Source of the DNA: Curvularia clavata
Lineage: Eukaryota
Assembly: GCA_023920165.1 (NCBI GenBank)
Contig: CP089281.1
Location: 1,860,001 to 1,924,000 of the forward strand
Direction: 5' to 3'
DNA length: 64,000 bases
Part shown: positions 12,685 through 45,283 of the stretch, piece by piece
Layout of the letters: each line of letters opens with the position of its first letter
How positions within the stretch are numbered: the stretch's first letter is position 1
Made by a program: the position numbers and the translations under genes
Notes under the pieces: model-generated
The model's database searches: none
What the model saw: only the letters and a program-made list of their open reading frames with translations
Told to the model about the DNA's origin: nothing

Positions 12685-15228
12685 CTTTTTTTCTCTCTAC
12701 AGTTGGAGACTCGAGAGGGTCGACTATGGAAGGTGAGGCGAGAAGCGTCGAAAGGGTTATCACCGAGATAAAGGGCTTTACCCCCAAATACAAAAGCCGA
12801 TGTCGATTGGCAATTAGGTTTTTGTATTGTATTGCTGCTCCTCTGATCCAATGCTCTATTTCAGCTCCCTAATCTGTATTCCCATATCTGCCCTTTTCTC
12901 GTCCGAACTGGCACATAGATTGCGAATAGAGTCATCTTGCCATGGTAATACAATCCATTGTCTCGGACTCCGACATTCCCAAATAATGGACCGTGGTTAC
13001 TGTGGGGTTGTGGGGATGAAGGATTGCTGCGGTGGATTTTGTCGAGTATCCATAGCTATTCGTATCGCGTGGTGATCCACTTCCAACGAGTTTGGTCACC
13101 TGACATCTCAGACCACTGACCAAGTGTGTAGCGCGAACGTGTTCTGCTGGAGTTCAATAAAGAAGGTACGCCGAGATAAGGACAATGCAAGGCCCACCCC
13201 GTCTATAGTAAACAGTAATATGTGCATATGCACGTAACCATCTAGTCACAGTGTAGCGTCATGCGTAACATCATACATTGTCCTTGTTCTGACGTGCATA
13301 TTCGTTGGACAACACTAAAGCTTATTTCGCAACGTTGAATGACACCCAGGAGCTAATATCTTGTCGTCAACAAAGTGCTTACACAGCGACCATTAGTGCA
13401 ATGGACGACTTTCCACAGGAAATACCAAGAAATATGGCTACGTTTTTATAAATGTATGTGGAATTGATATAATATAGGCAATGCCAGATACGGACAACAG
13501 TTTCAGGTTCCTCTTGATTAATGACAAATGAATAATTGACCCCGGACAACGCTTCACGCCCCGTCCCATCCAAATAATGTTCTGGCCAATAACAGCGCAG
13601 CTATCAAACTTGTATTTTCTAGGGCGATAGAAACCCCCTGCTATTGGAGTTTCGGGCTTGTTACAATAGTCTTAGACTTTTTTTCGTCACTCATCTCCTC
13701 ACTAGGAAGTAAATGTATCATTATCGTGTCTTTTAGCGTTTTATGAAACTTGGCTTCAAGAGTGGTTGTAGTGCAAAAAGTTGCAAGAATTGCTTGCCTA
13801 GTACCGTAGCCATCGGAGCCCCGCCACATACAAAGGGATGGCGATGCTGGATGTTACATGCAGACAGCCTGTTTTTTCTCTATAATATCGCACTGTTCAT
13901 CAGAGCAAAGTATTCATATATCTAGAAATAACTCAGGTTGCTTCTGATATTCTAATATGAACCTTGGCGGAAGTCCCATTTGCCACATCACGCATGCCAT
14001 AAGCTTCGGCATGATATTTTCATTCGCATATGAGAGACTTTCGAGAAGTTACTGTGTTAAGCTCCAGTGTAGGACCTTGTCACACTGGACCTCCTTGTTC
14101 TTCCTCAGAAAGTCCAGAGATGTACCTATCATCATTCTTCAGGCACTGATTTCTGATCAGACAGTATTGAGTCGTCCGATAAAGCGAACGACATCACTCC
14201 ACTCGCGCTTGCCGCTTTATATCTGCCCAATATGAGGGTCGTATGGATCCATATACCACGGGTACTGCTCTAATGTCACGTTCACGAATGTTCAGTCTTG
14301 ATATTGTAAGTACAAAAACTTGCCAACTATTAAGAAAATGACATTCCTACGTCCCAACTTCACTAAAATATGTCAAAGCTCCTTGAAGCCACTCCATATT
14401 AACACATATTTCTCTCAAGTAAACCTTGTTCTAACGTGAGCATAAAACAACCCTTGATTTGGAAGCATGTAAATCACCTTTGGGCCTACAATGGATGATA
14501 ATCAAAGGACCTGCCTTTTCAGACAGGCTTTAGGGTTCAATTTGGCGTTTTTAGATACTTTTCTCCAGATAACGCGGTTAAACAGCTAGATTCGTACCAA
14601 AGTGGAGCTAGCTAGACGCACTGTTCATGATAGTGTAGAACTATCGGACAAAAAGAGTATAGGATGCCAAAAGAAATCTTCAGGCTTATTTTGTGTTCAA
14701 ACTATTGCGAAAGAAGTAACGTGGAGATCCCAGGGTTGCAGTCAGTGTGGGCTTCTTTCATTCCCCAGGCAACACAATCTCGAATTTCCTAAAGCCCCTT
14801 ACACACTCACAGCTGTACTAACAAGATCGCCTAACCTAGCTGTGAAATCACAAAAACATCATCGCTGGCGTGACCCTCGGCTTCAATTTATCAAGTGGGA
14901 ATAACACGACTGAATAGGCAAAGTACGCAGGTGTCAATGTGACACGCAGCTCCACTCTCCCTTGTAGTAAATACCCCGACCCTCCCACCCAAAATGCCCG
15001 AAAAACACTGCAAACGAGGAAAATGACATGCAGAGAGCAGGGGCAATACGATTGGGAACGGGGGGCCAAGTGCAGCCCAAAAGAAGCCCAAATACCTGGG
15101 AATACCCATCATTTTAAGAGGCGGCTCAAAATTGAGTTCTGAGGCGAGAGCTAGCGGGAAGTTTAATTCGCATTCTTGTCTCGATTGTCTTATATCATCT
15201 TTCGCAAGCGTGCTGAGCCACACCAACC

Positions 15229-16245: not shown

Positions 16246-16783
16246 ACTCGGGATTTAATGACGTGAATGAACTATGGTCTGAACGCGTAAAGGACGAATC
16301 TGGTCAATATACATGCAGAAGCATGGGCATTTGGATGGTTGCTAGTTTAACGAAATGAACGGACATTAAAAGACAAACACACAATGATACTTCCTTCGGT
16401 GAGACTGTGATCATTCTTGGATTTGCAAATCCAGCACTGTGAAGAGGCGTTGAGAGATGCAAACTGCAAAGCAAACCCGAGTGGACACTTCACGATGAAG
16501 GCAGTGGGAACCAGCTCCTAGAAAACTTGATTATGGCAAGCCGCCCCTCCCACTTATCCATACAGACTCAGCACGGAAACCCAACTGTGGGTACACGTAA
16601 AAATCGGATGATTTCCAAGCCGACGATCACAACGCAACATGGAAGTCTTGACTGACTCAATCCGTGCATGCTCAAAACAATTTATGAAAGCGACACATCT
16701 GGATACCGCTTCCACTAGATAGCACACTAGCACCAAAAGAACAATTCATCATAGACACATGAAATCCTATTCCGCAACTCTCT

Positions 16784-18154: not shown

Positions 18155-18908
18155 TATGTCGGGAGCAAGAAATCAACGTATGGCCTGAATTCTCTTGGTT
18201 TGTTTGCACAAGATCTGGACCGCGATTGCAGAGCGAACGAGAGCCCAGGCACTTATCAGCCTACATGTTGGCCTCAATTCGCCCCACAGAGCCTCACAAC
18301 TAGGGTAGTCGAGGGTTGCGGACCAATTTGGCAAGTCGGGGTCCAGGGTATTGCAAAATGCACCGACGCACGTCATTTTGTCCGGCGTAAACTTCGCGTG
18401 GCATGATCGTGGTCCGCTGCACGTAATCGATTAAGTTTCCAGTTGCAGGGAATACGCCGATGTTTTGGATGGTAAATCAGTGTTTTCCAATATGTTTGTT
18501 GTCCCAAAGAGGACTTGCTTTCCTGATCACGTGACATGTGAGTGTAGTAATGTCACCCATGTAAAGTGAACACTTCCTGCCAATCAAATTGGGTGAAATT
18601 CATGCAATGTAGCATTTATTTGCTGGAAGATTCATCGAAGCTCGTCTTTCCAGCGAGAAACAGCTGTCATGACCTGCAGTATTTACTGAAAGATCACGTG
18701 ATAATAAATCCACGTGCGCAGAACTTCAACCGGGTGACCATACAGATAAACGAAAGAGCTTTTCAAGAGGACTCTAAAGGCTGGGGCATACATGAGTATT
18801 CTTTGTTCATTAGTTTGCATACATAAAGCCTGACCGGCTTTACATTCTAAAAACAAAACATTGTGCACAATCGGCGCTCATCATCAAGTGTCTCGTCAAG
18901 AGCGACAA

Positions 18909-20226
18909 TCACAACTTCTCGCAAGTCGGTCCCCTCGGCGCAATAACCTGCACCCCATCTCCATGTGTACCATACGTGACGAAATCCTTCCTCTCCAACC
19001 CAACCTTATCCAGAATGCAATCCCATTCGACCAGCGACCTCTCTCTTGCCCCATAGTTTGCCATCATGAGCATATCCTGACTGGCTCCGTACCAATGCGT
19101 ACAGTCATCCCTGAGAACCAATTCGTCGACCACAATAATCGAGTCCGGCTCAAGAACATCCTTAAGAAGCGAGAGAATGTTGTGACAAGCGTGGTCAGGC
19201 CAATCGTGCAAAATGTTGCGCAGATAGTAGATGTGGGCGCCCTTGACGGGCTGGGGTTTAGTAAAGTCGTGGTGGACAACTTTTAAGCCATGGATGCCCT
19301 TCGCAGAGTCGATAGCGGCACCGTGGGTGTCTTGTAGCACGATGCGCCCTTGGAGCCAGGAAAATCTCTTCAGAGCCTCACGACACTGGTGTCCGTAGCC
19401 GCCGCCAACGTCTACAAAGACTATTCGCTGTTTGTCGCTCGCACCGAAATCAGGCACGTATTTCTCAAAGGGGAACACGTCTAGCCAGCTTTGCTGACCC
19501 ACACGCTGGAAGGACATGTATTCGTTAAAGGCATGTTGGTGTCGCGGCCGCTGGGATAGCCATTCAAAAAAATGGAGATCCGTATTCTTACACATATTGA
19601 AGGCGAGGTTCTTATTATCCTGCGGCTGTTTGTAGGAGTTTTTGGCTAGCCACTTTGGTAGCGTGTTGTACAGTGCAATGTTCCGCTCAGTCCTGTAAAA
19701 TTAGATGGGATGAACAGGGAAATACTTCCAGAAACACTCACGCATGGAAGGTCACGGACTCAATTCCGGACATGGAAAGGTGGTGTGTGAGACCCGTTGC
19801 CCGGTACATCTCGACGTCGACTTGCTCAACCATCCACTGTGTAGCTGCATATCGCAACAGCCGCACCAGCAGGGCCTTTTCAGCGCCCAGCTCGGTAGCC
19901 AGCTCGCTGGCGCTCATTGCCGCACCATTGCGGCTATCAAGCAGCCTCCATAGGCCCAAGTCGATACCGACCTGTACTATATTGGGCGGCAGTGTACAGA
20001 AAACCATACGCTGCATGGTGTCCCAAGGCGTTTCGAGCCTGAGGGAGGCCATCCTCATCGCCTCGAGGCATCTGCGGCGTTTCTCGTCATCATTGCGCAG
20101 GCAGTTGGGAATGTTCCCCACGGCGAGGGATTCAAGTGATTCGAGGAGATTGTCGGTTGCGACATCCTCGTCGAAGTTGACATTTGAGTGTTCAGAAGGG
20201 AACGATATAGCGGCCATGGTGATCAT
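18909..20226 (-). CDS. SAM-dependent O-methyltransferase (fungal secondary-metabolite class)
   Basis: Two exons (intron 19741-19693, in frame): N-terminal dimerisation region, VDVGGGYG, YYLRNILHDWPD, ERS. The start could be 20217. Confidence 0.93.
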
Positions 20227-23200
20227 GAGTTTAGTACCCAGACATGGCTATACAGCGAAGATTGGAAATATATATTGCTCGCTGCCAGAAGCGGCATGGT
20301 GACGCAAAAGGACGCAGTGGAACTCATGCGGTGTCCGTCATACTTGCTTTGGTCGGTACATTGCAACAATCGGGAGTTAATTGGAAAGCCGGTAGCCGAC
20401 ATGAGAAGATCTCTGGTAATTTATGGCGTAGGCGTCAAGTTAGGTGGTTGCAATCTTGTTTACGATCGGTTTTTGCTTTTCTCAAATTTCTAATGCAGGT
20501 AGTTGTCATCATCATTGGTGGTGATGACACGGCCTTGCTTTTTGGTCTTGTTTAGTTTTCTAGTTTATTTCGGGCATGCTGTTTTGGGCAAAGGAAATAC
20601 AAGGCGATCTGTTGTGGCGCATGCATGTCGAATACTACATAGATGATCGAGTAACGGGACTGACAGCTATTTTTTGTTTCCATGCTCATCAATAGTGCAG
20701 TGCTTTTGAGAGGAATAAGAAGAAGCAATGGTTCTATACGACCGACATACGTCGGTGGAGTTTGCGTGAACAATTTTGGAGAGAACCCATGTTTAAGCGT
20801 GAGGGTAATTAAAGCGTCATGCTGAAGTGCTGCAGTAGAGTGAATAATAGACTTGAACGAAAACAAGTTTTGTCCTGATTTGTGTACTTGCGAAAGATGT
20901 TGAGTAGTTGCTTTTCTTTTCGGGTGTAAGAAGGACCGTGAGCTGCAGCAGAAGAAGGTCGGGTGCATGTTGTTCCGATAAGCATGCTTCCTTTTGGTCA
21001 ACCACGCTTCATGAAATTTACCTGTTCACGCGTGTCACAGGAGGCTGTTGCTCCGATTGCGGTAGATCCCTGTAGCAAAGCTGCAGGATCCGAATTTTAC
21101 TTTGTCGCGACACGTGCTGCTGAATCTCGTGAGTGGGGTTGGGGGCAACTCCTTCACTGAGGGATTTTCTGAAGTGTTTGGTGGACACAGCCCAGCACGG
21201 CCAATCCGCTGCATACCGCTGATCAGTAAAAAATCTGAGTGGGAGCGACGTGGTGTGACTCGGCCAACCAGTTGGTAGCTAGCTGCAGGAACAGTGGAAC
21301 ATATATCTGGGTCGTTGCCGCTCGCCATGTGGGTCTATAGATATGCAGGTTCTTTGAGCGGTTTCCACTTTGCGATATCTACGGGCCAGGCGGAGACGCG
21401 ATTTTCTGTTGAGGTGGAACCGGATCGGAGCGTCGAGACTTTGACAAGATACCAACAGTTGGGGAGCGGCAGGTGCACGGCCGTTGGAGAATGCAGTATT
21501 AGTAGGCTTAAAATAGTCGGATAAAACGGGCCCCAGTCAAATTACTACAACAGTATCATCATCATGTGACAGATGATTCAAGCGCATCTAGATGTATTCG
21601 TACTTGGTATGCGTCTTCGAGAGCTGGGGCTTGCGGTTTATCAGAGTTGCTGCGGTGCAATTTTGTTTCGACTATTTTGGTACACCAAGAGGCAGGCGAG
21701 GCGAACAATGGCATTGGTACGAAGTTCAGCTGCACTCTTATTCAGGTGTATGTAGCAGGTCAAAAAAACATGATGCGGTTGGTGTACCGTACCGAAGATC
21801 TACCTTGAGGAATAGGGCCTTTTTGCCATAGTTTATTGGGCGTTTTTGGCGCACGACTAGCCGGCCAATACTTGGTACCATGACGGTGGTGAACAAGGCC
21901 GGACTGAGGCTGACGAGGGGGGTTTGAGTGTGCTCAGCAGCGGTCCTTGAGTTGTGCTGAGCTTATGTGTAGGTGTTTACGTGTACATGGCAGCTGGCGT
22001 ATACTGTTTCAAGCGTGAGATGGCGACCGAGGCGTTTGTAGCAACAGCGAAGATTAGAGGTGGTGCGCCGAGACAAGGGCGGCAACGGCAGCAAAAGTGG
22101 GGAGGTAGCGCTAATGCGTGGAAAACGGTTGATTGACCCAAGGGCTATGCAATTGGCCATGTGTGCAACTCGCGTGATGGGTCTCGACGAGCATGTGTAG
22201 CACAGACAGGTCAAAGAATTTGGAGTGTGTGCTCAAACGAGCATCCAAGGCCTCGTGCAGGTGTGGTGGGAGGGAGACGGGCTTCCTTTTCGAGGCCAAA
22301 ATCAAGCGTGCACCGTTTCTCTGGCTGAAGGCAGCGTGGCTTGGCAGCGTCACCACATGGCTGGCGTGTTGATATCGGGGCCCATTGGTGAGGGGGAGCC
22401 GGCTTACACTGCTTTCAGCAGTTTACCCAAGGCAGTGCCGAAAGGACTGCAGCGCACGAGGAAGCATGCAGACGAGCATGGCGGCGGTCATGCTGAACAA
22501 GGAGCGATGGCACCGGGCTGATCTAGTTGGCTGCAGACATGCACGTCTGCGGGCGCGTCCCAGGCGTGTCATCTGACGCGGGGTAGGTGAGCAAGTTCAG
22601 CGATAGCAACAGAGAGCAAATGCCGGTGTGCAGAGAGCAAATGAGGGTGTTGTGTGTCTGTGTGCAGATGAAGTCATGGTCGGACAGACGCTTTGGTACG
22701 CGTGGAGCCCCGACTTGGACGAGCTTGTACAAGTCGAGAGAGTGTCGATAGGCCGTGGGACGGCGCGGCCAGACAAAAGGCCGGGCGGTGTTTCGAGCCT
22801 AGGAGTAAGGTCGTATTGCAGCGCCACGGGGGCCTGAGTCAGCCGTCTGTCTTATTGCGGGCAGACAGCGCAGACGGGCTGACAAGAAGCGGGCGATGGT
22901 TCGAGACATGCAGGCGTCCAGCAGGCCGACGGGGACAAAGTCGATCAACAGCATAGTATGTATGCGCGAGACGAGGGATTGGGACGGGCGGCATGGCGGG
23001 TGCGGTGGGCCTGGCAAGCGAGATCTGGAACGCACTCTTGGTCTCGCCTTGGTCTCGCCGACAAGACATCCCTGCCGCGCCAGCCAACTCCTGCAGGGCA
23101 GCTGACGGTATCCAGTGATGGACACGCCGCCGGGATGCGTGTGGATGCCACGGCCGCCCCGCCCACGGCCGCTGTGTCGTGTCGTGTCTGGCGTAGGGCT

Positions 23201-30414: not shown

Positions 30415-32201
30415 ATGATTGCAGGCTCGTCTAACTTTGACTACTCTTCGCTCAAAGAGCTACTCAAAGATACAAATGCCGAAATTCTCACCCCTACAGA
30501 TGGCGCGGCCTACGAGAAAAGTATAGGACGATGGAGCGAGCATTGTATTAAGAGAGCTGTAAGTATGGTAGTCTTTTTCTCCATGCAAATTATGGGATTG
30601 GGCAAATAATTCAGCCCGTAGAGATTGCACATCATCCAAGCTACGTTTCCTAAAACCATGACATCTTAATCACGTCCCGCCATTTAATACCTTTGTATAA
30701 TCACTATCTATCCCACGTCTACTAACAAGAGAGAAGGCTGCTGTTGTCATGGTCACTTCGGCCGACGATATATCTGCCACCCTTGCGCAGATCCGCGAGC
30801 ACAACATCCCATTCACGGTTCGAGGAGGCGGTCACAACACTTCTGGGGCAGCTTCGATTGAAGATGGTATCGTTATCGACCTCTCCAAGATGCGAAAAGT
30901 GATTGTAGATCCTCAGGCCAAGACCGTCACAGCGCAGGGCGGAGCTCTCTGGGAAGACGTCGATGTTGAAGCCGCAAAGCACGGACTTGCCGTTGTTGGA
31001 GGTACTGTCAACCATACCGGTATAGCAGGCCTAACCCTCGGTGGTGGGTATGGTTACCTCACTGGCAAGCATGGTCTGGTAATTGGTATACACTATCTAG
31101 TGACCCGAGCAAACAACATCTACTGACAAATTTAGACAATCTGCTCTCCGTGGACATTGTTCTTGCTTCTGGAGAGCAATTCACCGCATCAAAAACATCA
31201 AATGAGGACCTCTTTTGGGCAGTCCGCGGAGCTGGTGCAAACTTTGGCGTGGTAACATCATTCACCTACCAAGCCTACGACCAACGTCCACACGTATTCG
31301 CGGGGACAATGGTGTTTCTCCCAGACAAAATCCCTGAGATTGTTGAGTTCTCAAATAAATTTCACACTTCCAACGATGGCAATCAAGCGTTTCTCTTTGG
31401 TTTTGCAGCACCTCCGCCTGCCAATGCCCCAGTTATCATGTGTATGCTCTTTCACAATGGTACCGAAGAGGAGGCAAAAGATTTTTTCTCTGAAGTCTTC
31501 AAGATTGGTCCTGTAGCAGACATGACGGCCATGGTCCCTTACGAGAAGCTGAACAGCCTACTCAACCCTGCGGCTGGATTCGACGGACGTAAGCAATTTG
31601 GTGGTGGAGCATTCAAGACTCCTTTGGACCCCAACTTCATTATTCAGCTCCACGCCGAATTCAACGCTTTCGTTGCTTCTCACGAGCGTATGAACGAGAG
31701 CCTGATGATATTCGAACTTATCCCTTACAAAAAGGTGATGGAGGTGCCAAACCACGCGACATCCTTTGCGAACCGTGGCGACTACTACAATGTTGCTACA
31801 GCGTTCAAGTGGTCAGTACAAATAACGAATAGGGAAAATTAGTACTAATTTGGCAAAGGTTCGACCCATCGATTGACAATGAGATTCGTACTTTTGCTCG
31901 GAGCATCCTTAAAAAAGCTTCTGAGACTGCAGCTGGTCGTTCAAAGGATGGAGGAGTTGGTCAATACGCGAACTACGCACGTAAGTCACATACAAAACAC
32001 TTTGGGGCTTTGAAGCCCCATCGGTGAAATGAATCAACACGTACTTTGGTACTGACTGAAACAGCTCTTGATGTGGAAGCCAATGATCTGTTTGGTGCCA
32101 ACGTGAAACGACTCGAAGAGTTGAAGCAAAAATACGACCCAGAGAATTTGTTCAGTCATGGAACAAAATTGACACCGCGACCTCTAGTAGTCGTGAACTG
32201 A
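30415..32201 (+). CDS. FAD-linked oxidoreductase (berberine-bridge/VAO family)
   Basis: Five exons; VRGGGH flavinylation motif, [36 protein letters not shown]-terminal [19 protein letters not shown]. Confidence 0.92.
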
Positions 32202-32834
32202 AACCTGTGTTTGGACGGATCGCCGAAGAATCTTCGTTATTCATTGAAAGTATCTCGAACGATCGACCTCATACATGTTTAAGTGGGCTTTAACATGAGT
32301 ATATTTAATGAGTTCATTTCATCATTCAAATGGTCTTACTTAGCAATGAATTGAGTACCGCATTGATTGTGTCATTGCTGCTCTCAGTTTGAATCACAGG
32401 CCGTGATACCGTCGAAGCCTGAAACAGAAATCTGTCCAAATGTGCCGATAATTCCGTTGCATTACAGGGCTGTGGAATCACCAATCTCACAAACAGTCAC
32501 GATGAATGCTTGAATTTAAGCACGCGGCCATTATCACAACCAAAAGCCATGTCACTAGGAAACCCATTTAAGGCTGCGTTCTCAAAGTCTTGGTCTACAT
32601 ATGGATCCCAAATCTTTCAAACAACGATCTCCACTCGAATTCATAACACTGAGCACTCCTTAAATATAACGGAAGCTCAGGCAAAGGAACAACTTGCGAT
32701 GAAACAAAAGTAGATCAACCATCCAAAGATGTTACCAAAAGGCATCAATCATTCGAGAAAAACATCAAAGAACATTCCAAATACTCAAAATAGGATGTAC
32801 CGACTCAAAAACTCTGCATATGCGAAGTGCCAAA

Positions 32835-33089
32835 ACCCAAGGGTGACCTTGGAGTCTACTCATGACCGTCAAAAGTCCTAGGACTGTGGGTAGATTATAT
32901 TTGCCTCGTTCATCCAGTCTCAGTCGTTCCTACATTCTCTCATGGTCCATGAAGCGAAAATGGGCTGCATTGATGATCGTCGCCTTTTTCACCTTCTTAT
33001 CGCCTGTATCTTCAGCCATGATCGCTCCTGCTCTGAGCGATACCGGCGTTGATTTTAGCATCATAAACCCAGCAGAAGCTCAAATGTAG
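32835..33089 (+). pseudogene. Remnant of a DHA1-type MFS drug/metabolite transporter
   Basis: WSMKRKWAALMIVAFFTFLSPVSSAMIAPAL..PAEAQM is a typical first transmembrane segment of fungal MFS-MDR transporters, followed by a stop with no recognisable continuation. Confidence 0.7.
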
Positions 33090-34997
33090 AAGATTGAACC
33101 TCGGTTTTATGATATGCTCTAAGGAAAAGTGCCAGGCCAGTGCCATGCGAACATATCAAGGACAAGGCTTTTTTATTAGGAAGGTTATGCTGTTCAAGAG
33201 CCCATCATCGTCGACTTCACTTCATATAGTCAATAGATGTTTTCACGGACATTTGAGAAGCAATTATTCTGACTTCGGCGAGCGAATACAGCTGTGAAAA
33301 CTGACGGTCTCATAAGAACGCTGTTGCTTACTCAAAGACAATAACTGAAAGAAGAGCTGTATCCGTTCGTTTCTCACATGGTGGCTCAAGTGAGTACCAA
33401 TCTTTTTCCAGAGTTAATTTGTCTTTGGTATGTTTGACATGGATACTGGAATATTTTATCAAGTGTCGCAGCAGCGCACATTTCAACATTTTGGACAGAC
33501 CCCATCCCGACAATCACGGTGCATGAGTAAAAAGGATATTCCCAACTCTAATGCTATACGGAGAACCATAGTACGGATTTTTTGTATTATACTGTAAATG
33601 TGTATCCCACAGACTTATTGCGACGAAAATGCGTCTCTTGCAGAAAAGAGTGATTTTTATTGACATAGTAAAGCTATGGTGATGGTATTCACAGAATTAT
33701 CAGCTGCATGCGCATGGGAGGTAAGGGATAATGCTCACCGCGGATTACACGACGAATTCGAACGAAAAATACGAGGTCCAAGCCTTACTCTGATCACACC
33801 ACCTCAAAAAAAAAAGGCGTAAAGGATTTTTCATGCTGATTACTCAACACTTGCAGAATGCTTCATTCAGTACCGCGGAATGACAATAACGAGGCCAGAC
33901 CATATATATTGATAACAGCGACAACCCCACCTCCGCCCACAAAAGTCGAATGATACTCGTGTCATCGCCTTGAATGCCCAGCATCGTAGTAGGATCATGT
34001 CGTTGCTATCGTATGATTAAAATTGTCAGAGACATTTTGTACTAGTACCTTTTAGGGAGTTGCGCTTGGACTTAGAGAATTTCGAGACAGTCCTGTGTGT
34101 TGTGCTTCCAATTGGGCGCGTGGATAGTGTATTATATTGTTACACAAAATAGATCTTATATACAATACGGTTGTAAGCTGTGTAAGACTGCATGGGCTGA
34201 GCGTAAGCATACCATGTACTTTGTAGATGCAAAGGCAGATTCTTCTCCGCGGGTGGGTACTAGGGGATCACTGTGCAAATAGTCGCTCCGATTCGGATAT
34301 GTGGAAAATATATGCGCATGAAATAGATGATCATGAGCAAAATTTGCATCACAAGGTTCCAACTGATACTCAGCCCAGCCCTGAACCTTGCCTGTGACAT
34401 TTACTATATGCAAGTCTTTTGACATCCCTTTGTGGTAGTCTTCTGAGCTATCGGCGACCTTCACTCATCTTTCAGGCGTAGAATCTTCAATGACAACATA
34501 GTGCAAGGTCCACTGGTTGACATACTTGAAACCAGTTATAAGTTCAGATACTCAGTGTGGAAGTTAAAGCTCTGACCAATCATGATCCATGTCTAGGGGT
34601 TCTTATGATTGTCGCCCAGATCGCAGACATCGGTAGGAAATAGCTTTACTAGTTGAACTCACTGCATGTGGTCACTTACAGATATCATCACTGCCGATCC
34701 CTGCTTACTGGCAGTGTAGCATACGGATTACTATACTCCGTACAATCACCAACATCGACAACCAATAGTACAGAGTGTTTCAAGCAGGGGGGTTCGTGAT
34801 ATTCGCCCCACCTACCCACGCCTACTGCGCCAAGCCTCGAACTAGAGAGCAACAACAAAACAAGCAACTTAGTCGGCGAATTTCCCAGGGCTTCGAGTCA
34901 GAAATCACCGACGGCAGTCTTCGATCCACGTTAAAAACAAGATTTGGGTCCAATAAGGGAGGCCATAATGTAACCACGGAGCACTGCCAGGTCGACA

Positions 34998-35922
34998 ATG
35001 CCACCTCTATCGGGAGTCGCTTTGATCACGTTAGCCGGCTCAGGTAACCAACACAGTTTTGTCATCACGATTTGTTTGAAGTTGAATTTATCGCGAGCTA
35101 ACGCAAGGTCACAGGCTTTGGGCAGAGTACGGCATACTCACTAGCCAAACAGGGTGTCACTCAATTTGCCCTTGTCGATACAAATGAAGCTGGACTGCAG
35201 GAAACAGTCCAGACACTGGCATCTCGTTACCAGGTGACAGATGTGCTGACTGTGTCCTCTGAATGTACTACCGAGGAGACGGTTGAGGCGGCAGTCCAGC
35301 AGGCCGCATCGCGATTTGGGCGCATCGACTTTGCGATTAACAACCGTGGCTTTGGCGGGCCGATGGGCCCCAGTCCCGATACGGCAGTTTCTGCATTCGA
35401 CAACCATTTAAAGGAGGATGTAACAGGGGTATGGCTATGGCATCGGGCCGAACTACGGCAGATGGTGGGGCAAACCCCCCGCGATATGCGCTACGGCCGT
35501 GGTAGTATCGTACATGTCTGCTCAGTCCATGCTTTCGCAGCCTCGCCACCACAAGTGGCTGCTGGTGCGTATGTGGCGGGTCGACACGCGATACTGGGTC
35601 TTACTCGCACCGAGGGCGTGTTGTATGCACCACAGCAGATTCGTATCAACGCCCTCTGCCCTGGATACATTGCGTCTCCTCTGATCGAGTCGTCGGAGCA
35701 GCTCAAAGCTTTCATCAGCAATCTTGTACGCGAGCGCGTACCCGCAGGCCGACTTGGAGAACCAGAAGAAGTTGCTGATGCAGTCGTGTTTCTGGCTAGC
35801 CCCAGCTCCAGCTACATGTTCGGACAGGCGTTGGTTCTGGATGGGTATGAATTTACCCACTTTGAAGACGAGTCAGAAATCGAGATATGCTAACCTGTGA
35901 TAGGGGCTACCTGGCTCAGTGA
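34998..35922 (+). CDS. Classical-fold SDR with altered motifs
   Basis: Spliced MPPLSGVALITLAGSGFG..FGRIDFAINNRG..GSIVHVCS..AYVAGRHAILGLTR..IRINALCPG..GRLGEPEEVADAVVFLAS..VLDGGYLAQ*; introns ~35044-35114 and 35844-35903. Confidence 0.85.
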
Positions 35923-36171
35923 GCTTTCTGTCAATCTTGTAGCGTTGCAACAAGACGTATGGGGGGAGAAAGGGGTTTAGTGGCGAAGATAGAAGCGGCA
36001 TCGTGATCTGAGTGAAGCATTTAGATAAGGTATAGTTAATGCATTATAACTCTATTTTACAAATCGATAACATGTACGTGTTCTATGTTGAACCATATGT
36101 GCACAGAGCTTTTCGTAACTTCCTTCTCCCAATGTGTTCAGGGCGCAGATTGTCAAATACTGTCCGCCTTC

Positions 36172-36825
36172 TCAGTTGCTAGCAAACAAAGTGCCAGTTC
36201 CACTGCCGTTCAGTAGCGACCGCTCTTTGAGATGGCGGATACATGTACGCACCAGACGGAGGTTGGTACGAACGAGCTGAAGACAGGCTGGTGCAAAATG
36301 TGCTGTTTCGTTGACAATGCCATTTGCACGCCCGTTGGGCGAACAAGAGACCAGCGCGGCTTCAAGTGAGCCCAGGACGGCGGAGAATCCTGTCAGGCGC
36401 AATGTCATGAGCTCGTTGCTGAGAGCATCGGCTTCGTCCGCAGCTAGGTCATAGCTGCCAATAGAAAATTCCCAGCGCTGAGTGGCATTTGGAGCCGTTT
36501 TGGGGGGTTCTGTAGCGTTTTTGGTGTCGGAGTTCGTGGTTGTGCTTGTGCTGCTGGCGTTTGTTGACGTCTCAGCTTCGTCGTCGTCGGCAAGGTTCCA
36601 TAACCGACACAGCCAGTTGACAACGTGGGCGCATAGGATTGTGACGGCGGTAAGTGGGAGCCTTTGTTGACGGCACCGTTCGCAGCTTAGTACGGCGAGG
36701 CTAGGCCGCTCTGCTGTAGATGTGACTTGGAGTGCTGTTTCGAATGGAACTGATGTTGTGATTTCCTCGATGCGTGCAAGAGTTCGTAATACAAGAAAAG
36801 CGCAAGTACAATCACCACGTTGCAT
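36172..36825 (-). CDS. Stand-alone AflR-like C-terminal regulatory domain (no Zn2Cys6 finger)
   Basis: 217-aa ATG-initiated ORF with the pattern CTC..L..L, VLSCERC, S/T-rich linker, FSIGSYDL, ELMTLRL, resembling C-termini of cluster Zn2Cys6 regulators. Confidence 0.6.
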   Translation of the reverse strand: MQRGDCTCAFLVLRTLARIEEITTSVPFETALQVTSTAERPSLAVLSCERCRQQRLPLTAVTILCAHVVNWLCRLWNLADDDEAETSTNASSTSTTTNSDTKNATEPPKTAPNATQRWEFSIGSYDLAADEADALSNELMTLRLTGFSAVLGSLEAALVSCSPNGRANGIVNETAHFAPACLQLVRTNLRLVRTCIRHLKERSLLNGSGTGTLFASN

Positions 36826-37275
36826 CTTCTTTCTCTTTTACATGCTGTGATAAATTCAAAGAGGGGTTTTCTTTCGCCAGTACCCTTTAATAATTTGACA
36901 CTAGCAAGGCTCTCCTCGCCCGTCATCGGCTACAAGCATGCTCGGCATGTTTTGCAGACAGTGCCCTGTATAGTCCCATATGTTTCTACAACTATGGCGA
37001 AAGTGGATTGAATCCGCTTGGCTAGCAAGATAGGTGTGATATTCCCAATGATAGAACTTGACTGACCCACTAGCAACCGTAACGTTCGCATGCATACTAA
37101 CATCATAAATCCGCCGAAGATTGTAAATAACACCGGGCCAACCATGTCCGCATCTACAAAGTGATCTTTGCGCGACCGCGAACAAGATAAAAAAACTCAG
37201 TCTTCACTTTTGCGCCACTTGGTCGTAACTGACTTGTTGAGCTTTCAGTGTTCTCGTATGATATATCATCCCATC

Positions 37276-38447
37276 ATGACCTCTTTTAATCACCCTGCAA
37301 TTGCACCAGGTTCCACCGTCCTCGTGACGGGTGCAAACGGCTTCGTAGGAGCGCATGTTTCAGACCAGCTTCTTCAGCAAGGCTACAGAGTGCGAGGCAC
37401 AGTCCGAGATGCCTCAAAACATCAATGGCTAGTGGAGAGATTCTCGGAAAAATACGGCAAGCATATGTTTGAACTCATTACCATCAAAGACATGAGAGAG
37501 CCGGGTGCATTTGATGGCGCAGTCTCAGGTACACTCCCTCAACCGAACTTCGAACCTTGAGACCCCTAACAGACTCTCATGATGTAGGTGTTTCTGGCGT
37601 CATGCATGTAGCCTCGGTGCGGAGCATGGATGTCACGCCGGAAGAGTTACTCCGAACCACCGTTGCGGGGACCCTGGGATGCTTGCAGGCTGCGGCTAAG
37701 GAGCCAAGTGTGAAGCGATTCGTACTAACTTCGTCTTCCGCTGCGGTCCGCTCACTGCAAGCTTACCGTGGAACGGATACAGTCTCTGCCGACGAATACG
37801 ATGACCAGACCCTAGCCTTGGCTAAGAACATCCCTAATGCTCTTCCACCAATGCATAAGTTTATGATCGCTTACTTTGCATCAAAGGTCGCAGCCGAAAA
37901 GGCTTTCTGGGAATGGATAAAGGACAACAAGCCACAATTTTCTGCCAATGCAGTGCTGCCCTGCACCATCTACGGGAGCCCACTTGACGTAACCCATCAG
38001 GGCTTCCCCTCTACCTCCAGGATCCCACTCCAAATTCTGGATGGCGATACTGAGTCCATTAAACACGTGCAGAGATGTACGTAATCCCTGTTCCACTGCC
38101 CTTAATCGCTCAGAATGACAGCTAACACTAGGAAAGTTTACTATGTCCATGTGCAGGACGTTGCTCGTCTTCATGTTGCGGGTTTGATTCGCCCGGATGT
38201 TAACAACGAACGTATATTTGCGTACGCTGCCTCTTATTCGATCAATGAGTTCTTTGACATCTTTGCGGGGGCCGTTCCGGGCTACAAGGCCCGAGAGAAG
38301 CTGCAGGGTCTAGATTTCCCGCTCGCCGAGATAGGACCCCGCGGAAAGGCAGAAGCGCTATTGAGGGACTTTGGCAGGCCAGGATTCATCGGATTGGAGG
38401 AAACTATAATTGACAGTGTGAAAACTCGTATCCATGCATCTTCGTAG
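37276..38447 (+). CDS. NAD(P)-dependent epimerase/dehydratase-family reductase (aldehyde reductase II-like)
   Basis: VLVTGANGFVG, GYRVRGTVR, VKRFVLTSSSAA, catalytic YFASK, VHVQDVARLHV; two introns. Confidence 0.92.
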
Positions 38448-39262
38448 CTTCGCCGGATTGTAGAAGTTATCTGTAGTGTATTTGACATGGGAACGCCGAA
38501 TACAAGCGCCAATGGGGTTGGCTCCATTGCTTTTCTCTTGATGCAATCTGGTGCTGGTACAGCCTCCAGTTCATATATTCAATCACGCGACTTGTCAAAT
38601 AAAGTAAACCTTACGTATCAGATGATTGATTAAGGGAAGGCAAAGACATTTTCATATGTTGTCAAGCAATTAGCGTACAAAAGGGATTCAGCAAAGGCGA
38701 TGCAGCAAAGGGATTCAGGTCAAATTGGTCCAGGAAATTCCCCTTTGTATCAGTTACCGGCACATGTGTTGTAGAAACGTTGATCTGTTTTCTGTGTATC
38801 CTGTACAGAGAATCAAGTGCTCATTACTCAATCGCGTAGGCAATAACTTCACGCAAGCAGATCATGTGACAAGTGCTAATTGCAGCACTGCCTGTTATAA
38901 CCATAGTGCTACATATGTAAGGCTATAGCATAAGTATGATACATTGTTCCCTGTAGTCGAAAAGTGAGTCCAAACATCAAGAGTAACAAGCTACTCATGT
39001 TCACCCAACAGCGTCCCTGCTAAGAATTCTAAAAAAAAACGACACAACTTGCGGCTAGAAAGCTTATGGAACTTCTCACCAGCATTAGGAGAATGTGCAT
39101 TGTAATTACATGTAAAAAATGCTACCATATCCACACAACAGCGACTAATAACATTGACCAGAAGAACCACGTGATTTAACATTAAAACCACAAATCCCTG
39201 CTTATCGCACGTGACAGCGACGCGTCTTATGAAAGATATTGCTATCTGAAATACTCAATCGC

Positions 39263-40709
39263 TTAGGGAATTTCTCCCTCCTCTGCCAATGCCTCACGCA
39301 TTGACTTGCTGTTTGGGTCCAAATAGGGCTTCTCTCCGATACCGCAAACACGGTATCCAAACCGTTCACCGTAGTCATCATAGTCCATGGTTGCATTGTG
39401 CACCATGCTGCGATTATCCCAGATAGCTGTTGTTTAAGTTAGTCTTATTTCGCTTTCTTCTTACGAGAGGGACTAGGCAGCATACCCATATCGTTTGGAC
39501 CTTGCCATCTGAATCGACACTGTAGATCGTGGTTGCGTAGCACGATATCCATAAGCCAGTTCAGAATCATGTCACTTTCCGGGGGTGTCAGGCCATTGAT
39601 AGAGCCAGGCTGTTGGAGGAGGGCGTCTGGTTAGTGGCATGCATATTTCAGGAACGTGAGAATTAACACATACATATGCTCCGATGGCGAAGACGCTCTT
39701 CCATCCGGTAACAGGATTTGTCCGGATGACAGGGTGAACGGCCTTCAGGGGGCTACCGGTGTTTTCCGGGTGACCGCGCGCGTCTGAGTACACTTTGATT
39801 TTCGTGTTGTTGATGATTTTCTCAAAGACTGTAGAGGGATTGATTAGCAGGCTGACAGTCTGGTGGCCATCTGACCTAGCTTCAACTCACATGGTGCAGT
39901 GTAGTTCGCAGTGTGTTGCTCTAGGAACTTTCGCATAGGCTCACTGAGACGGTCGTAGACTTCATAGCCAGATGCCCACAGTGTATCTAGGACAAATCAA
40001 TCAGTCTGGTATAGTAGTAGAAATGGCAATACGGATGCATACCTCCTCCAGCGGAAGGCAGTTCCACAAGTCGCAAGCATGTGTAATCGGAAGGCACTTG
40101 TTCGGATTGAATATCACTGTGCCATGATTCGAGTGCCTGCCTTGCGTTTCCTAGATCGCGGGGCGTGGCTTTGCCATTGACAAATTTCCTCTGGCGGGAG
40201 TTGATGGTACTAATGTGGAGGTCATCACCACCTCCCTCTCTCTGAGGGTTAATTACGGGGTGGATGTGTAAGGTGGACTCTTTCGGCTTGCCCACTAACT
40301 CGCCCATACGCTGGATTAGCGTCTTTTGCAAGTCATTAGTCATGTTATTCTGGTTACGGAAGAAGACAACGCCACGTCGAGATACTGCAAACAAATCATC
40401 TGTTAGTCGTGTTCTCTCATGAAACGTTTTCTCAAGCTTACTGGTAATAGCGAGGTCTCTTAGCATATCATCTGAATTTGGTGCGTTGAGCATGTCGACG
40501 AGATTTGCTTCGGGAAACTCGGTACCCACACTTGGTGTGACCTTGAATTGCTTGAGGGGATTAAGGACACCCTTCAGTTTTAGTGGCTTCGGAAAGCTGG
40601 TTTCCTGAGCAAATCCCCTCCGCAGCCATGGCGATCGAGCCTGCTGTGACGAGGAGAAACGTAAAACTGGAGCACTACGGCTCAACAAAATGGTGGCTGT
40701 TCTTGACAT
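39263..40709 (-). CDS. TauD-family 2-oxoglutarate-dependent (sulfonate-type) dioxygenase with mitochondrial-type N-terminus
   Basis: Multi-exon: TPSVGTEF, RGVVFFRNQ, WHSD, GGDTLWASGYEVYDRLS, HPVIRTNPVTGWKSVF, IWDNRSMVHNATMDY, GIGEKPYLDP; Arg/Ser-rich N-terminus lacking acidic residues. Confidence 0.92.
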
Positions 40710-41437
40710 TGTAGTTGCTGAAATCACTTCTTGTGGTTTTTAGAGGCAAGAGACACCAAATAGGTGGTTATTGGTCATATGGATGTGGCTTTGCTACTCC
40801 AATAATGTATTTTAAAAGAACTTAGTCACGAAAGGTAGGCCAGGTAGTCGGCGGATTTCTCCTGTTTTGCTATCGTACTCCGGCGCATAAATTTAACGTG
40901 ATATGGAACGGTGAAGGATGATCGCAATGGTTCACGCGTGATAATCGGCAGACTCAACGATGGCGTAGTCTGGACTGCATGACGAGCTATCCCTCATAGC
41001 AATAGCTGATGCAACATGACCCACAGCTGTGGGTCAAATATACACACGTCTTAAGTACGTAAGGTGTGTCTGAATTCGGGACATTTGTGGGACATCGGAC
41101 CGAACCCACGCTGCGGGACATTTTACCTGTACGGTTTCCAGATTTCGCATCTCAGAGTGGAGATGCTATTGATATCGCTACTTTGTTTACTTGCCGAGTG
41201 TTCAGTTGCTGTATCTGTTCAGTCGATATTGACATTGTACCGCTTCAGGCGGAAGTGTTGCTTAGCCACCGAGTCAAGTTTGGTATACCATAGCAGGTTT
41301 CCCGAATCTCGCACTTTCCACAAACACTCAATAGTGATTTATGAGAACATTCCTATTTGATTGATTGAAACTGAGGTTTATATTATTCTTTTTCCATCTC
41401 TTCTAGAAGCCAGAGAAACAACGGGTTTACACCAAAA

Positions 41438-42522
41438 ATGGGCAAAAAACTGATCGTTGTCACCGGTGCGACGGGTAACCAGGGCGGATCCATTGCTCGC
41501 GAGTTGCTCAAGACCGGAGAGTGGCACATCCGCGCTGTGACGAGAAACTCAAAAGGAGAAAAGGCGCAAAAGCTTGCTGCGATGGGCATGGAGGTTGTAG
41601 AAGCCAGCTATGATGATGAAGAATCTGTTCGAAGAGCTTTCACCGTGAGTCTCTCGATAACCATGCTTCAGAGATTACTTCTAACAGCATGACAGGGTGC
41701 GCAAGCCATCTTCGCCGTGACTAACTGGTGGGAAGGTTTCTTCAAGGGTTGCGGCCAGGCTGAGTCTGGCGAGATTGAAGAGCGCCAAGGTATCACACTC
41801 GCAAAGCTGGCAGCTGAAGTAGACACTTTGGAGCATTATATCTGGAGTACACTTCCTCCAGCAGAAGAGATCACCCACGGCAAATTCCCTGTCCCTCATT
41901 TCGACTACAAAGCCAAAGTCGACAATTACATTCGAAAGAACCTACCATCTCTCGCTGCCAAAACAACCTTCCTCATGTTTGCGTTCTATCCATCCAACTT
42001 TGCCTTCTTCCCCTTGTTGAAGCCGCTGCCCGTGGTAGGTGTACTCCACCTGAATACTTACTCTTAACGCAACTAATTTGAGGATAGGCTACCGCGCCAG
42101 GGACATACGTTTGGATGGTTCCAGCGGGTCCATCAACACTTTACCCAATGTCGGGCGATATGAGTAAAGACCCGGGTATTTGGGCACGCCAGATTCTTGC
42201 CAACCCTAAGTTAACGCATGGCAAATATGCTGCTGTCTGTACAGAAGTCATTACACTTGGGGAAGCACTCAAACAATGGGAGGCTGTATCAGGCAAGAAG
42301 GGCGTATATGTGGATGTAAAGCCAGAAGTTATCGGAGATTTATTTGGCCTGGCGGGCGAAGAAGCAGTTACTGGAGTGTTATTCGGCGTAGCAGTTCCGG
42401 ACTGGTTTGGTCACGTCAAGGAACAGAATCTTTTCGTTACTAAGGAGGAGCTGGGTATCTCGGCGGATGAAGTCTCCAACTTCAAGCAGAGTCTTGAGGC
42501 GGTAAAACAGTTTTTGGGTTGA
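41438..42522 (+). CDS. NmrA-like family protein
   Basis: IVVTGATGNQGGS, IRAVTRN, AIFAVTNWW, HYIWSTL, VPHFDYK; two introns. Confidence 0.92.
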
Positions 42523-43786
42523 ACACTCAGAGATATGAACTTTTCACACTGGCTGTGATATCAGAAATAGAATACGATTACTAAAAGGCCTGTTGTAATT
42601 TATCTTCCCGCGCTCCTAGTGTTACTTCTCCACTCTGCAGGTGACACCATTTCACCGCGCTTAGCGTTATTTTAGGCAGGCTTTTATCTTCATGACTCTT
42701 TTCATGCCGACACCATACATGCCAGACACGTGCCGTGGAGGTTCAAACGCCAGAGGGGTCTCGAAACAAAGGCTCAAGATGGTGTGACCCAGGCCGTTCT
42801 CCTTGGACGGGTGACAGGGTCCTAGCCGGTTGGAAAAGTGGGTCTTTACCTCTGGTATGTACTCGGGTAGCGATAAACAAATAAGGTGGCTCTAATTTCA
42901 CAATTGGGGTACGTACATACACATAGCTGATGATGCATACTACCTCACTGAGACTGTAGGCATGTACTCGATCGGACAAAAAGACCACATGTTCGACCAT
43001 GCAATCGGGATGCAACCGAAGAAGGGCCTTTTGAATATATTCTCTCAATGCGCTAGTCTCCACATGAGTTTCTCGGATCCCTTGATTGGCTGAACGACAG
43101 AAGGTACCCAGGTTATGAGGAAGGTGTACAGCTACGAGCGCCTTTCAGTTGCTAGGGCCTCTGAATAGCGTACAGACTCTGTACTGCTCATTGCTGACGT
43201 GGCCCTGTCGCCACTTCGGTCCGAAAGACTTCGTCTCCGTATGATCGATGTATACACCCTGTGGCGTTCTTTGTGAGCCATGGTGTTGGTCTTCCAATGA
43301 TGCCCCAGTTTGGATTTGGAGAAGCCCCTTACAAAGGAGCCAATCAAGCGTTGTCTTGCCTCGGTTCGGTAACAGCTCTACTAAGGGTTCGTCAATGGAG
43401 CTAGGTAATGGGGCTCCACTATTAGACATCGTTATTAAGGACCCAGTTTTGGAGGGTGGTTGTACGAAAGGCAGCGCGTATCTTATCTGCTTAAACTCTA
43501 AAATGCAACTACAGAAGGCCCTTTTGAATCGACTCCCTTTGCCCGCAACTTTCCGCACATAGACCCTGGCCGATGTGAAAACCGTACCCTGATCGCGCGT
43601 ATGCATCACTGCCATCCGGCGAGAGCGTGGGTCTCAGCGTTTCCGATACACTTCGTATGCATGTGTTCCGATCTGACTCTAGTGCGACCTCTCACATGTT
43701 GTTAAGTATATACAGTTTAGGTATATCTATCGCGGGATTGTCTTTACTTACTATCTATCGAACTAATCGCCAACACCGAGTCAATC

Positions 43787-45283
43787 ATGCAGGAGAACGA
43801 CCCAAGCGCAAAGGGCAGTGGCCCAGCATCGAAACCCACCAAGTACCGCCTTGCGTGCGACAGCTGTCAACAATCCAAGATTCGATGTGACCAGGAACGG
43901 CCAAAATGTCGCAGATGTGCAAAGAAGGGTATGGAGTGTGTCTACAGTCCTGCAAAACGAGCGGGACGCCCTCGAACTCGCAACAACAGCAAGAGCTCCG
44001 CCTATTCTGAACCCAGTTCATCTGCGAGCCAAAGGGCGTATCCAACACCTATAATGGAGAACTGTATCACTGTTTCAACCTCGAATTGGATGTCACTATC
44101 GGCTACCGACGACTGCTCCAACTCCAGCACCGGGTCCAACGCCTCAGCCTTCTCGAGTTTGGCTCAGACTTTCCAGATGCCTAGCCCTGAAGATATAGAC
44201 TTCTCTCTATATCAACAACCAGATGAAGAGTTCCTGCAAGTTCCAACAAACTTCACTGGCTCGCAGTGCGGAACACCAAAACAAAACATCAATTGTTATT
44301 ATCCCACATCTCCCAGTTTTAACATCGCTCCAGAACTTCTCAACCTAGATTTCCGCAGAGCATGGGAGCATCCGCAGGAACAGAAGCAACAACCAGAACA
44401 ACAGGGTCATGAACAGCACCAACAAAATGCCGCAGCCATGCTCCTTGACGAAGGCCTGCCTTACTTTGGTTTAATCAACCCAGAGGATCCTCAACCAATC
44501 CATCCTCCGGAACAGCAACAAGAAGAAACGGCAATCTCGTCTTTAGAAAACTACCACCACTTCCAAGGATGCAGCCCACCAATTTCTCAAACGCAACAAG
44601 AGCAACCACAATACACACAGCCCTCAGACCAAGCCTCTCCCTCCAGCAGGTCATGCAAATGCGTTACTGCTCTCCTGGATCATCTAACTACATCCCCTCA
44701 TACGTCCGCTTCCTCATCCCTTGAAACTATCTCGGCCGCACTCTCTACCTCCAGGACACTTATTTCCAGCTGCTGTGCCGCCATAGCATGTCCCAACGCC
44801 TGTTCTGCACGCCCCTCATCGGCGCTCGTCATCTGCGAAGCCATTGACCGTGCTCTCATTTCGCTCAAATTGAGCGGTACTTCTCTTTGGAACTCCACAC
44901 GAGTTCCTGCTCCAAACTATGAGAATGGGACGTGTTCGCCACCATCGTCTTCATCATCGCCATCGTCCAGCAAAAGCAGCGGTCATGGCAATGACATCAT
45001 GCTTCCCTCGTCATTGGTAGACGAGGAGCACGAGCCGTTGCGCTGCGGATCGCTACCGATCCGAGGCGCCGACAGACGGGCCGTTGTCAGGGTACTGTTG
45101 GTGAAGCGGGTGCTGGAGGTGCAGGGGGTGCTAGAGCGATTGCGGGACACTTTGCTATCAGGGTCTTTGGTTGGCGGGGATGTGACAGTGAAGAAGCCGC
45201 TGCTGACGCTATGTGCCGACGTCGTCGGAGAGTTCGCCGTGAAGGTGGCGGAAAGGGTGGAAACTGTAAAATTGCAGATGTGA
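43787..45283 (+). CDS. Zn(II)2Cys6 pathway-specific transcription factor (AflR-like architecture)
   Basis: ACDSCQQSKIRCDQERPKCRRCAKKGMECVYS binuclear cluster, Q-rich middle, and a C-terminal CKC..CPNAC..LRCGSL domain. Confidence 0.93.
   Translation: MQENDPSAKGSGPASKPTKYRLACDSCQQSKIRCDQERPKCRRCAKKGMECVYSPAKRAGRPRTRNNSKSSAYSEPSSSASQRAYPTPIMENCITVSTSNWMSLSATDDCSNSSTGSNASAFSSLAQTFQMPSPEDIDFSLYQQPDEEFLQVPTNFTGSQCGTPKQNINCYYPTSPSFNIAPELLNLDFRRAWEHPQEQKQQPEQQGHEQHQQNAAAMLLDEGLPYFGLINPEDPQPIHPPEQQQEETAISSLENYHHFQGCSPPISQTQQEQPQYTQPSDQASPSSRSCKCVTALLDHLTTSPHTSASSSLETISAALSTSRTLISSCCAAIACPNACSARPSSALVICEAIDRALISLKLSGTSLWNSTRVPAPNYENGTCSPPSSSSSPSSSKSSGHGNDIMLPSSLVDEEHEPLRCGSLPIRGADRRAVVRVLLVKRVLEVQGVLERLRDTLLSGSLVGGDVTVKKPLLTLCADVVGEFAVKVAERVETVKLQM

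Follow-up and report, generated by a model that had tools for sequence, protein, structure and literature searches.

A conserved TCGG-N4-TT promoter element in a six-gene cluster of Curvularia clavata and its candidate zinc-cluster reader

Introduction

A regulator encoded within a gene cluster and a common word in the promoters of that cluster form an ordinary arrangement in fungi, silent clusters are usually probed through overexpression of the regulator, and the sites of zinc-cluster proteins usually consist of CGG pairs. The site of AflR in the aflatoxin and sterigmatocystin clusters is the palindromic TCGN5CGR. For TerR, the regulator of the terrein cluster of Aspergillus terreus, the published report describes a monomeric DNA-binding domain, for which a T before the 5′ CGG gives high affinity, as well as sites in nearly all promoters of the cluster, one bidirectional promoter containing several (PMC4360782). 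The sites of Uga3 in Saccharomyces cerevisiae (UAS-GABA) are given as 5′-SGCGGNWTT-3′ (PMC4589623). In the present work we describe a promoter element with the core TCGG-N4-TT in a cluster of six genes from Curvularia clavata, located in a stretch of 64,000 nucleotides of contig CP089281.1 (positions 1,860,001 to 1,924,000, forward strand). This whole stretch is referred to as the window, and all coordinates are counted from its first letter.

The cluster encodes a short-chain dehydrogenase/reductase (SDR), a protein of uncertain family (gene 2), a reductase, a TauD-family dioxygenase, an NmrA-like protein and a Zn2Cys6 factor. Judged by comparison with related sequences, this conserved element very probably functions as a promoter site, and the cluster contains no fewer than five core copies. 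A literature search outside subscription journals, assessed from titles and the opening lines of abstracts, returned no paper on this cluster or on this word.

Results

A sequence-only reading of this DNA had singled out the word TCGGCGRATTT in the promoter regions of the cluster. Direct reading located its three sequences where they had been placed, sites 1 and 3 being identical at 14 of 15 bases (TAGTCGGCGAATTTC and TAGTCGGCGGATTTC, respectively). On both strands of the window TCGGCGRATTT had exactly three matches, at 34873 (+), 37107 (−) and 40848 (+), so that each of the cluster's three promoter regions contains a single copy, and no extra match appeared in the 64 kb when one mismatch was allowed. 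The 8-mer GCGRATTT was likewise confined to these three sites, and the motif is not common among unrelated promoters of the window. The SDR ATG (34998) follows the start of site 1 (TCGGCGAATTT, 34873-34883, plus strand) by 125 bp, and the reductase ATG (37276) follows the end of site 2 (TCGGCGGATTT, 37107-37117, minus strand) by 159 bp. For site 3 (TCGGCGGATTT, 40848-40858, plus strand) the nearest start codon is the minus-strand TauD ATG (40709), at a distance of 139 bp. These values agree with the distances to the nearest start codons proposed earlier. A detail to be corrected is the position of site 3 with respect to the NmrA-like gene, the ATG of that gene (41438) being 580 bp away.

The number of matches expected for TCGGCGRATTT was 0.01, and none of 100 shuffles reached three, an expectation that flatters the finding because the pattern was picked after being seen. 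A fairer test counted, in dinucleotide shuffles, any 11-mer with one free position that was common to all three promoter regions. Such a word appeared in 2 of 600 shuffles with the SDR promoter limited to 600 bp, and in 10 of 250 with the entire 3.1-kb gap upstream of the SDR gene included. The presence of one copy in each of three promoters is uncommon, and the shuffle result is suggestive, not conclusive.

Orthologous loci were obtained by scanning metagenome contigs with the large SDR exon. Nine loci were recovered, four of which (L001 to L004) encode close relatives with 83-86% protein identity. As revealed by tblastn with the window proteins, the cluster is complete in L001 and L003, where its genes keep their order and orientation, with identities in these two loci of ca. 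65% for gene 2, 74-80% for the reductase, 74-80% for the NmrA-like protein and 57-58% for the factor. L002 comprises the SDR gene and gene 2, and L004 repeats L003 up to the reductase. The cluster is conserved among Pleosporales-like fungi. The DNA upstream of the SDR promoter in L001 to L004 (up to 4.7 kb, in L004) showed no similarity to the window in tblastn with open reading frames (ORFs) or in blastn, so the cluster lies in different, non-syntenic surroundings on its left flank. In addition, metagenome run X9 yielded a contig of 4737 letters, ca. 80% alike, with reductase, TauD and NmrA-like genes in the same order (window 37604-42085), along with near-identical DNA; this contig indicates a further relative with the cluster and bears on synteny only.

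At the positions orthologous to site 1 the sequences were TCGGTACGTTT (L001), TCGGTGTATTT (L003 and L004) and TCGGTGCGTTT (L002); those of site 2 were TCGGTGGATTA (L001) and TCGGGGGATTA (L003 and L004), and those of site 3 were TCGGCGTATTT (L001) and TCGGCGCATTT (L003). TCGG and the TT at positions 9-10 were kept in 10 of 10 instances; nine of these have G at position 6 and all ten have a purine at position 8, resulting in the consensus TCGGYGNRTTW with an invariant core, TCGG-N4-TT. Conservation in orthologues, proposed earlier as a check of the motif, is therefore observed for this core at all ten positions and does not extend to the exact 11-mer (0 of 9 loci). The second CGG, on which the wording of the sequence-only reading laid stress, is not conserved: in the orthologues this triplet is replaced by CGT, CGC, TGG, GGG, TGT or TAC. 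Since the second CGG is lost and the first TCGG is invariant, the conserved register is CGG-N4-TT and not CGG-N0/1-WTT.

The degree of conservation was ranked in alignments of the window with L001 and L003, and also with L002 for the first promoter. On average, 23%, 32% and 43% of the columns were invariant in the SDR, gene 2/reductase and TauD/NmrA promoter alignments, respectively, as compared with 7, 9 and 10 of the 11 columns in the windows containing sites 1, 2 and 3. These motif windows fall among the best 27 of 501, 14 of 443 and 13 of 746, or the top 5.4%, 3.2% and 1.7% (Fisher combined p 0.002). This ranking is independent of the shuffle test, because the sites had been chosen without sight of the relatives. 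When a matrix was built from the orthologue sites only, a site at 41076 (the top match, with 18.0 bits) and those at 37107 and 40848 ranked first in the whole window. The conservation of these positions in orthologous clusters indicates that the element is a real cis-element of the cluster.

An unbiased count covered all words formed by a 4-mer and a 3-mer with 0-8 positions between them, the seven fixed columns being invariant in the three species. TCGG-N4-TTT was the sole one of 219 words that occurred in all three promoters, and also the sole one with at least four conserved instances. This count exposed two sites beyond those previously listed. The first (TCGGCATGTTT, 36942-36952, plus strand) lies 117 bp upstream of the gene 2 ATG at 36825 and is kept as TCGGTGTGTTT in L001, L003 and L004, with 9 of 11 columns invariant in the block at 36941. 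The second (TCGGGACATTT, 41076-41086, plus strand) is located 362 bp before the NmrA ATG, with 10 of 11 columns invariant, and corresponds to TCGGGACATTT in L001 and TCGGGGCATTT in L003. A relaxed form of the word, TCGGNNNNTTT, defined after the alignments had been seen, gave 16 matches in the window versus 6.8 expected. Five of them fell within the 1777 bp of cluster promoters, where 0.2 were expected and none of 1000 shuffles gave as many. In the relatives, the three promoter regions account for 23% of the DNA and yet contained 5 of 5 matches in L001 and 6 of 8 in L003 (P 5e-6); when only matches not orthologous to the previously listed sites were considered, 7 of 9 were in promoter regions in L001 and L003 taken together (P 8e-4).

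Further conserved positions resembling the element were found around these sites. In the SDR promoter, a near-site facing site 1 (TCGGTGATTT, 34902-34911, minus strand) follows the pattern TCGG....TT and is included in the best-conserved block of that promoter (CGAGTCAGAAA at 34894, 10 of 11 columns invariant), with TCGGGGCTTTT at the matching place of L001. The block at 37108, which overlaps site 2, is the best conserved of the gene 2/reductase intergenic region (10 of 11 columns). A conserved block CGGCGCATA (40881-40889, plus strand), 33 bp past site 3, is a possible weaker second site of the form CGGNGNAT; in the alignment block that starts at 40879, TCCGGCGCATA, all columns but one of 11 are invariant. 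Finally, a conserved TGCGGGACATTT (41112-41123, plus strand), with 9 of 11 columns invariant at 41112, represents a CGG-N4-TTT variant without the leading T.

Altogether, the element is located 115-160 bp before the ATG of the SDR gene, gene 2, the reductase and TauD genes, and 325-360 bp before that of the NmrA-like gene. It occurs in either orientation, and multiple copies per promoter were seen. The five-gene regulon put forward by the sequence-only reading is plausible on these grounds: a conserved TCGG-N4-TTT-type site is present upstream of each of the five genes, those of gene 2 and the NmrA-like gene (36942 and 41076) being missing from its list.

Two other conserved blocks (9 of 11 columns invariant each), one in the gene 2/reductase promoter at 37153-37163 and one in the TauD/NmrA promoter at 41179-41189, have the word ACAAAGT in common, in opposite orientation (at 37155 and, in reverse, 41180), and a perfect 13-nt inverted copy of the first block is found at 34218-34230. 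ACAAAGT was considered as a second common word and discarded: with one mismatch allowed, TACAAAGTG had 28 matches window-wide versus 13 expected.

The exon structures of the cluster genes were derived from spliced RNA contigs of public runs and from gene models built in this analysis. Pfam confirmed most of the previous gene list, namely the SDR, the reductase, TauD, NmrA and the Zn2Cys6 factor. The SDR gene (34998-35893, plus strand) has exons at 34998-35043 and 35115-35893, the splice being present in a contig of run X14, and encodes 274 aa (adh_short_C2, 1.6e-42). The gene for the NAD-dependent epimerase/dehydratase-type reductase (37276-38447, plus strand) has two introns and encodes ca. 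350 aa with matches to Epimerase and related families, according to RNA contigs of run X16 and candidate models. The TauD-family dioxygenase gene (39263-40709, minus strand) consists of six exons, whose introns come from RNA contigs of X16 and X17, and encodes 382 aa (TauD, 3.3e-9). The NmrA-like gene (41438-42522, plus strand) has three exons, supported by a spliced RNA contig of X17, and encodes 326 aa with a match to NmrA. The Zn2Cys6 factor gene (43787-45283, plus strand) has a single exon, with RNA contigs in X14, and encodes 498 aa, with Zn_clus at residues 23-58 (4e-11).

As presence only, and not as levels, RNA contigs were recorded for the SDR, reductase, TauD and NmrA-like genes in X16, and for the SDR, TauD and NmrA-like genes in X17. 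Gene 2 (36072-37139) was uncovered in X14, X16 and X17, TauD in X14 and the factor in X16 and X17; no weight was given to these gaps. Two minus-strand ORFs at 42743-43633 (133 and 162 aa), in the gap between the NmrA-like and factor genes, showed no Pfam family and no tblastn match in L001 to L004, and are probably not a gene. Immediately upstream of the cluster, a gene with one intron (31981-32064) occupies 31858-33499 on the plus strand; its ORFs have no Pfam family, its RNA contig in X14 reaches a word depth of 565 compared with 3-10 for the cluster genes, and it is not placed beside the cluster in the relatives.

The product of gene 2 (36172-36825, minus strand) has 217 aa, with no DNA-binding domain and, even at E = 10, no Pfam family. 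The earlier reading seems to have taken an ATG near 36950 as its start. Only 15 codons separate that ATG from a stop, and the orthologues do not retain it; the start of gene 2 is at 36825. The protein is 69-73% identical in L001, L002 and L003, with long invariant stretches, and this conservation among relatives shows that it is a real gene. The "AflR-domain" label previously attached to it was not recovered: neither gene 2 nor the factor matched PF08493 in hmmscan to E = 10. Nor did BLASTP (E 0.08) or hhalign (probability 0.8%) support gene 2 as a recognisable paralogue of the C-terminal part of the factor. The Atlas, based on a language model and on structure, holds exactly the gene 2 protein; in its neighbour clusters either 15-16% of the members are PF08493 AflR or 85% are CcsR_C, and the stored model aligns with parts of Zn2Cys6 regulators with a TM-score of 0.58-0.65 by query. 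The AflR label for gene 2 is thus a lead and not a finding, to which the Atlas alone points. On the basis of its Atlas features and structure, gene 2 may resemble the C-terminal part of AflR/CcsR-type zinc-cluster regulators without their DNA-binding domain, which we likewise take as a lead.

The factor is 48-68% identical to its orthologues, and its protein relatives are unnamed Zn2Cys6 proteins of Clathrospora, Alternaria, Bipolaris, Pyrenophora and Boeremia, a set that places the source among Pleosporales-like fungi. Residues 17-69, which include the zinc cluster and a basic stretch, are almost wholly invariant in 16 orthologues, the overall mean column identity being 61%. The factor gene is kept within the cluster in both complete orthologous loci (L001 and L003). 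As a separate observation on this gene, a 22-nt element, AACCGAAGAAGGGCCTTTTGAA, is repeated in the intergenic region between the NmrA-like and factor genes, at 43014-43035 and 43507-43528 (773 and 280 bp before the factor ATG), and is found in the same region of the relatives (L001:9948; L003:9052 and 9310). The reverse strand of its first copy contains CTTCGG, as does site 2. This repeat may serve to regulate the factor gene itself.

Words of the relaxed form were also present in a second island of the window (island 1), which comprises genes for a flavin monooxygenase (10786-12696, minus strand), a UbiA prenyltransferase (ATG at about 15229), a second TauD-type protein (ATG at about 18160, minus strand) and an O-methyltransferase (18909-20247, minus strand). 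Its intergenic DNA, in segments chosen after the matches were seen, contains 4 TCGGNNNNTTT words versus 0.46 expected (3 of 1000 shuffles). These words and a near-copy lie at 14969-15001, 16604-16614, 18356-18366 and 18451-18461; two are placed 230-260 bp before the UbiA start, one is ca. 195 bp before the second TauD start, and the near-copy is TCGGCGTATTC at 18451. The best match of the orthologue matrix in island 1 (18356, minus strand, 14.1 bits) is within chance, as shuffles gave 0.6 matches of at least 14 bits per window and 45 of 100 had at least one. Inclusion of island 1 in the regulon is a lead.

Discussion

The best available explanation for these data is that the element is read by the cluster's own Zn2Cys6 factor, to which we assign a probability of roughly 0.6 from the sequence comparisons described above. 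The factor (43787-45283) would read the TCGG half-site through its zinc cluster and the T-rich tail through the adjacent basic stretch, binding as single units and not as a dimer on a palindrome, and would turn on the five neighbouring genes together. The proposal of single units is based on the single T-preceded CGG with a T-rich tail at a fixed distance, in either orientation and several times per promoter. The near-invariance of residues 17-69 of the factor would fit an unchanged DNA word. Gene 2, itself under the element, could modulate the factor.

It has to be noted that several observations weigh against this explanation. Both the binder and the co-regulation are what we infer. The upstream region of the factor gene is poorly conserved and contains no such site. 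The exact 11-mer is absent from all nine fetched loci, the four orthologous ones included, and these four amount to three independent relatives (L001, L002 and L003), as L004 duplicates L003. Site 1 scores only 8.7 bits with the orthologue matrix, ca. 35th in the window, and there is some circularity in the TCGGNNNNTTT counts, the relaxed word having been defined with the alignments already in view. A triple of this kind is as such ordinary: 76 groups of 11-mers with one free position, the motif among them, occur three times within 6.1 kb of the window, which leaves 75 other three-copy groups. Finally, the spliced SDR contig of X14 starts near 34684, as deduced from bin depth and record coordinates, and spans site 1, so that at least some transcripts would carry this site in their 5′ untranslated region.

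The conserved site might instead be read by a factor encoded elsewhere, either a different zinc-cluster protein or a global regulator, with the neighbouring Zn2Cys6 gene acting on other targets. Many zinc-cluster proteins read CGG-containing sites, and the missing site in the factor's own promoter and the inferred pairing of factor and element leave room for such a reader; the enrichment of TCGGNNNNTTT in the intergenic DNA of the second island, ca. 20 kb away, would also fit a regulator of wider remit. On the contrary, the strict motif is limited to the cluster within the 64 kb, the factor is retained inside the cluster in both complete orthologous loci, and cluster-resident Zn2Cys6 factors commonly bind a motif in the promoters of their own cluster, TerR being an example (PMC4360782). 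We consider a reader encoded elsewhere possible, although rather doubtful.

A coincidence would imply that a chance triple of k-mers was noticed post hoc and that its conservation reflects generally conserved proximal promoter DNA. The 75 other triples and the 10 of 250 shuffles obtained with the full 3.1-kb upstream region are in line with this idea, as are the SDR promoter, with blocks better conserved than the motif (CGAGTCAGAAA, 10 of 11 columns), and the TauD/NmrA promoter, rich in conserved blocks with 43% of its columns invariant. What makes it very improbable is that sites chosen blind to the orthologues nevertheless fell within the top 5.4%, 3.2% and 1.7% (p 0.002), that the only one of 219 words common to the three promoters in the unbiased count was TCGG-N4-TTT, and that the same promoters hold two more conserved copies (36942 and 41076). 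That the word acts on RNA, for example within 5′ untranslated regions, is scarcely credible: relative to the nearest gene the sites face both ways, which would leave different words on the transcribed strand, and site 1, within the assembled and spliced SDR transcript contig of X14 that speaks for such an action, is alone among the sites in lying inside an RNA contig.

In its broadest form, a Pleosporales Zn2Cys6 factor would read a single TCGG with a T-rich tail four bases off and control a regulon that includes gene 2, as a possible modulator, and the second island, the two islands together making up one split pathway. We regard this extended version as unlikely.

If the element is indeed read by the cluster's own factor, an uncharacterised zinc-cluster regulator, whose conservation extends to Alternaria, Bipolaris, Clathrospora and their relatives, would gain a recognition word that can be tested, and the bounds of a small cluster of redox enzymes would be defined. 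Overexpression of the factor could then switch the cluster on, which is the usual route to the product of silent clusters. The general picture would remain unchanged, because cluster regulators with a common promoter word are textbook fungal biology; the element would be a further example of an asymmetric site with a single CGG in a family for which paired CGG half-sites are the usual description.

Comparison with known systems

The likeness with the TerR system lies in a cluster-encoded Zn2Cys6 factor and a T-preceded CGG word across the promoters of the cluster. The two differ in that the TerR consensus, TCGGHHWYHCGGH, includes another CGG five bases after the first, and none is read at this spacing in any of the three sites; the conserved downstream part of the present element is TT(T/A), four bases past TCGG. 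Moreover, the terrein cluster has a polyketide synthase, whereas the Pfam scan detected no core synthase gene for the present cluster in the window.

With the Uga3 sites the element shares an asymmetric structure, with one CGG followed by a W-TT tail, and independent sites that do not form a palindrome. The Uga3 formula fits GGCGGATT in window sites 2 and 3, and site 1 (GGCGAATT) falls outside it.

Regarding AflR, the likeness resides in a small cluster-resident Zn2Cys6 regulator, and one orthologue of the factor is named "Aflatoxin regulatory..." by its source. An AflR-type palindrome as the common word was discarded: the three promoters contain one TCGN5CGR match (40873), which is not kept in L001 or L003. 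In the window as a whole TCGN5CGR has 70 matches versus 51 expected. Altogether, the element falls outside the definitions of the TerR, Uga3 and AflR sites, and yet it would work like them.

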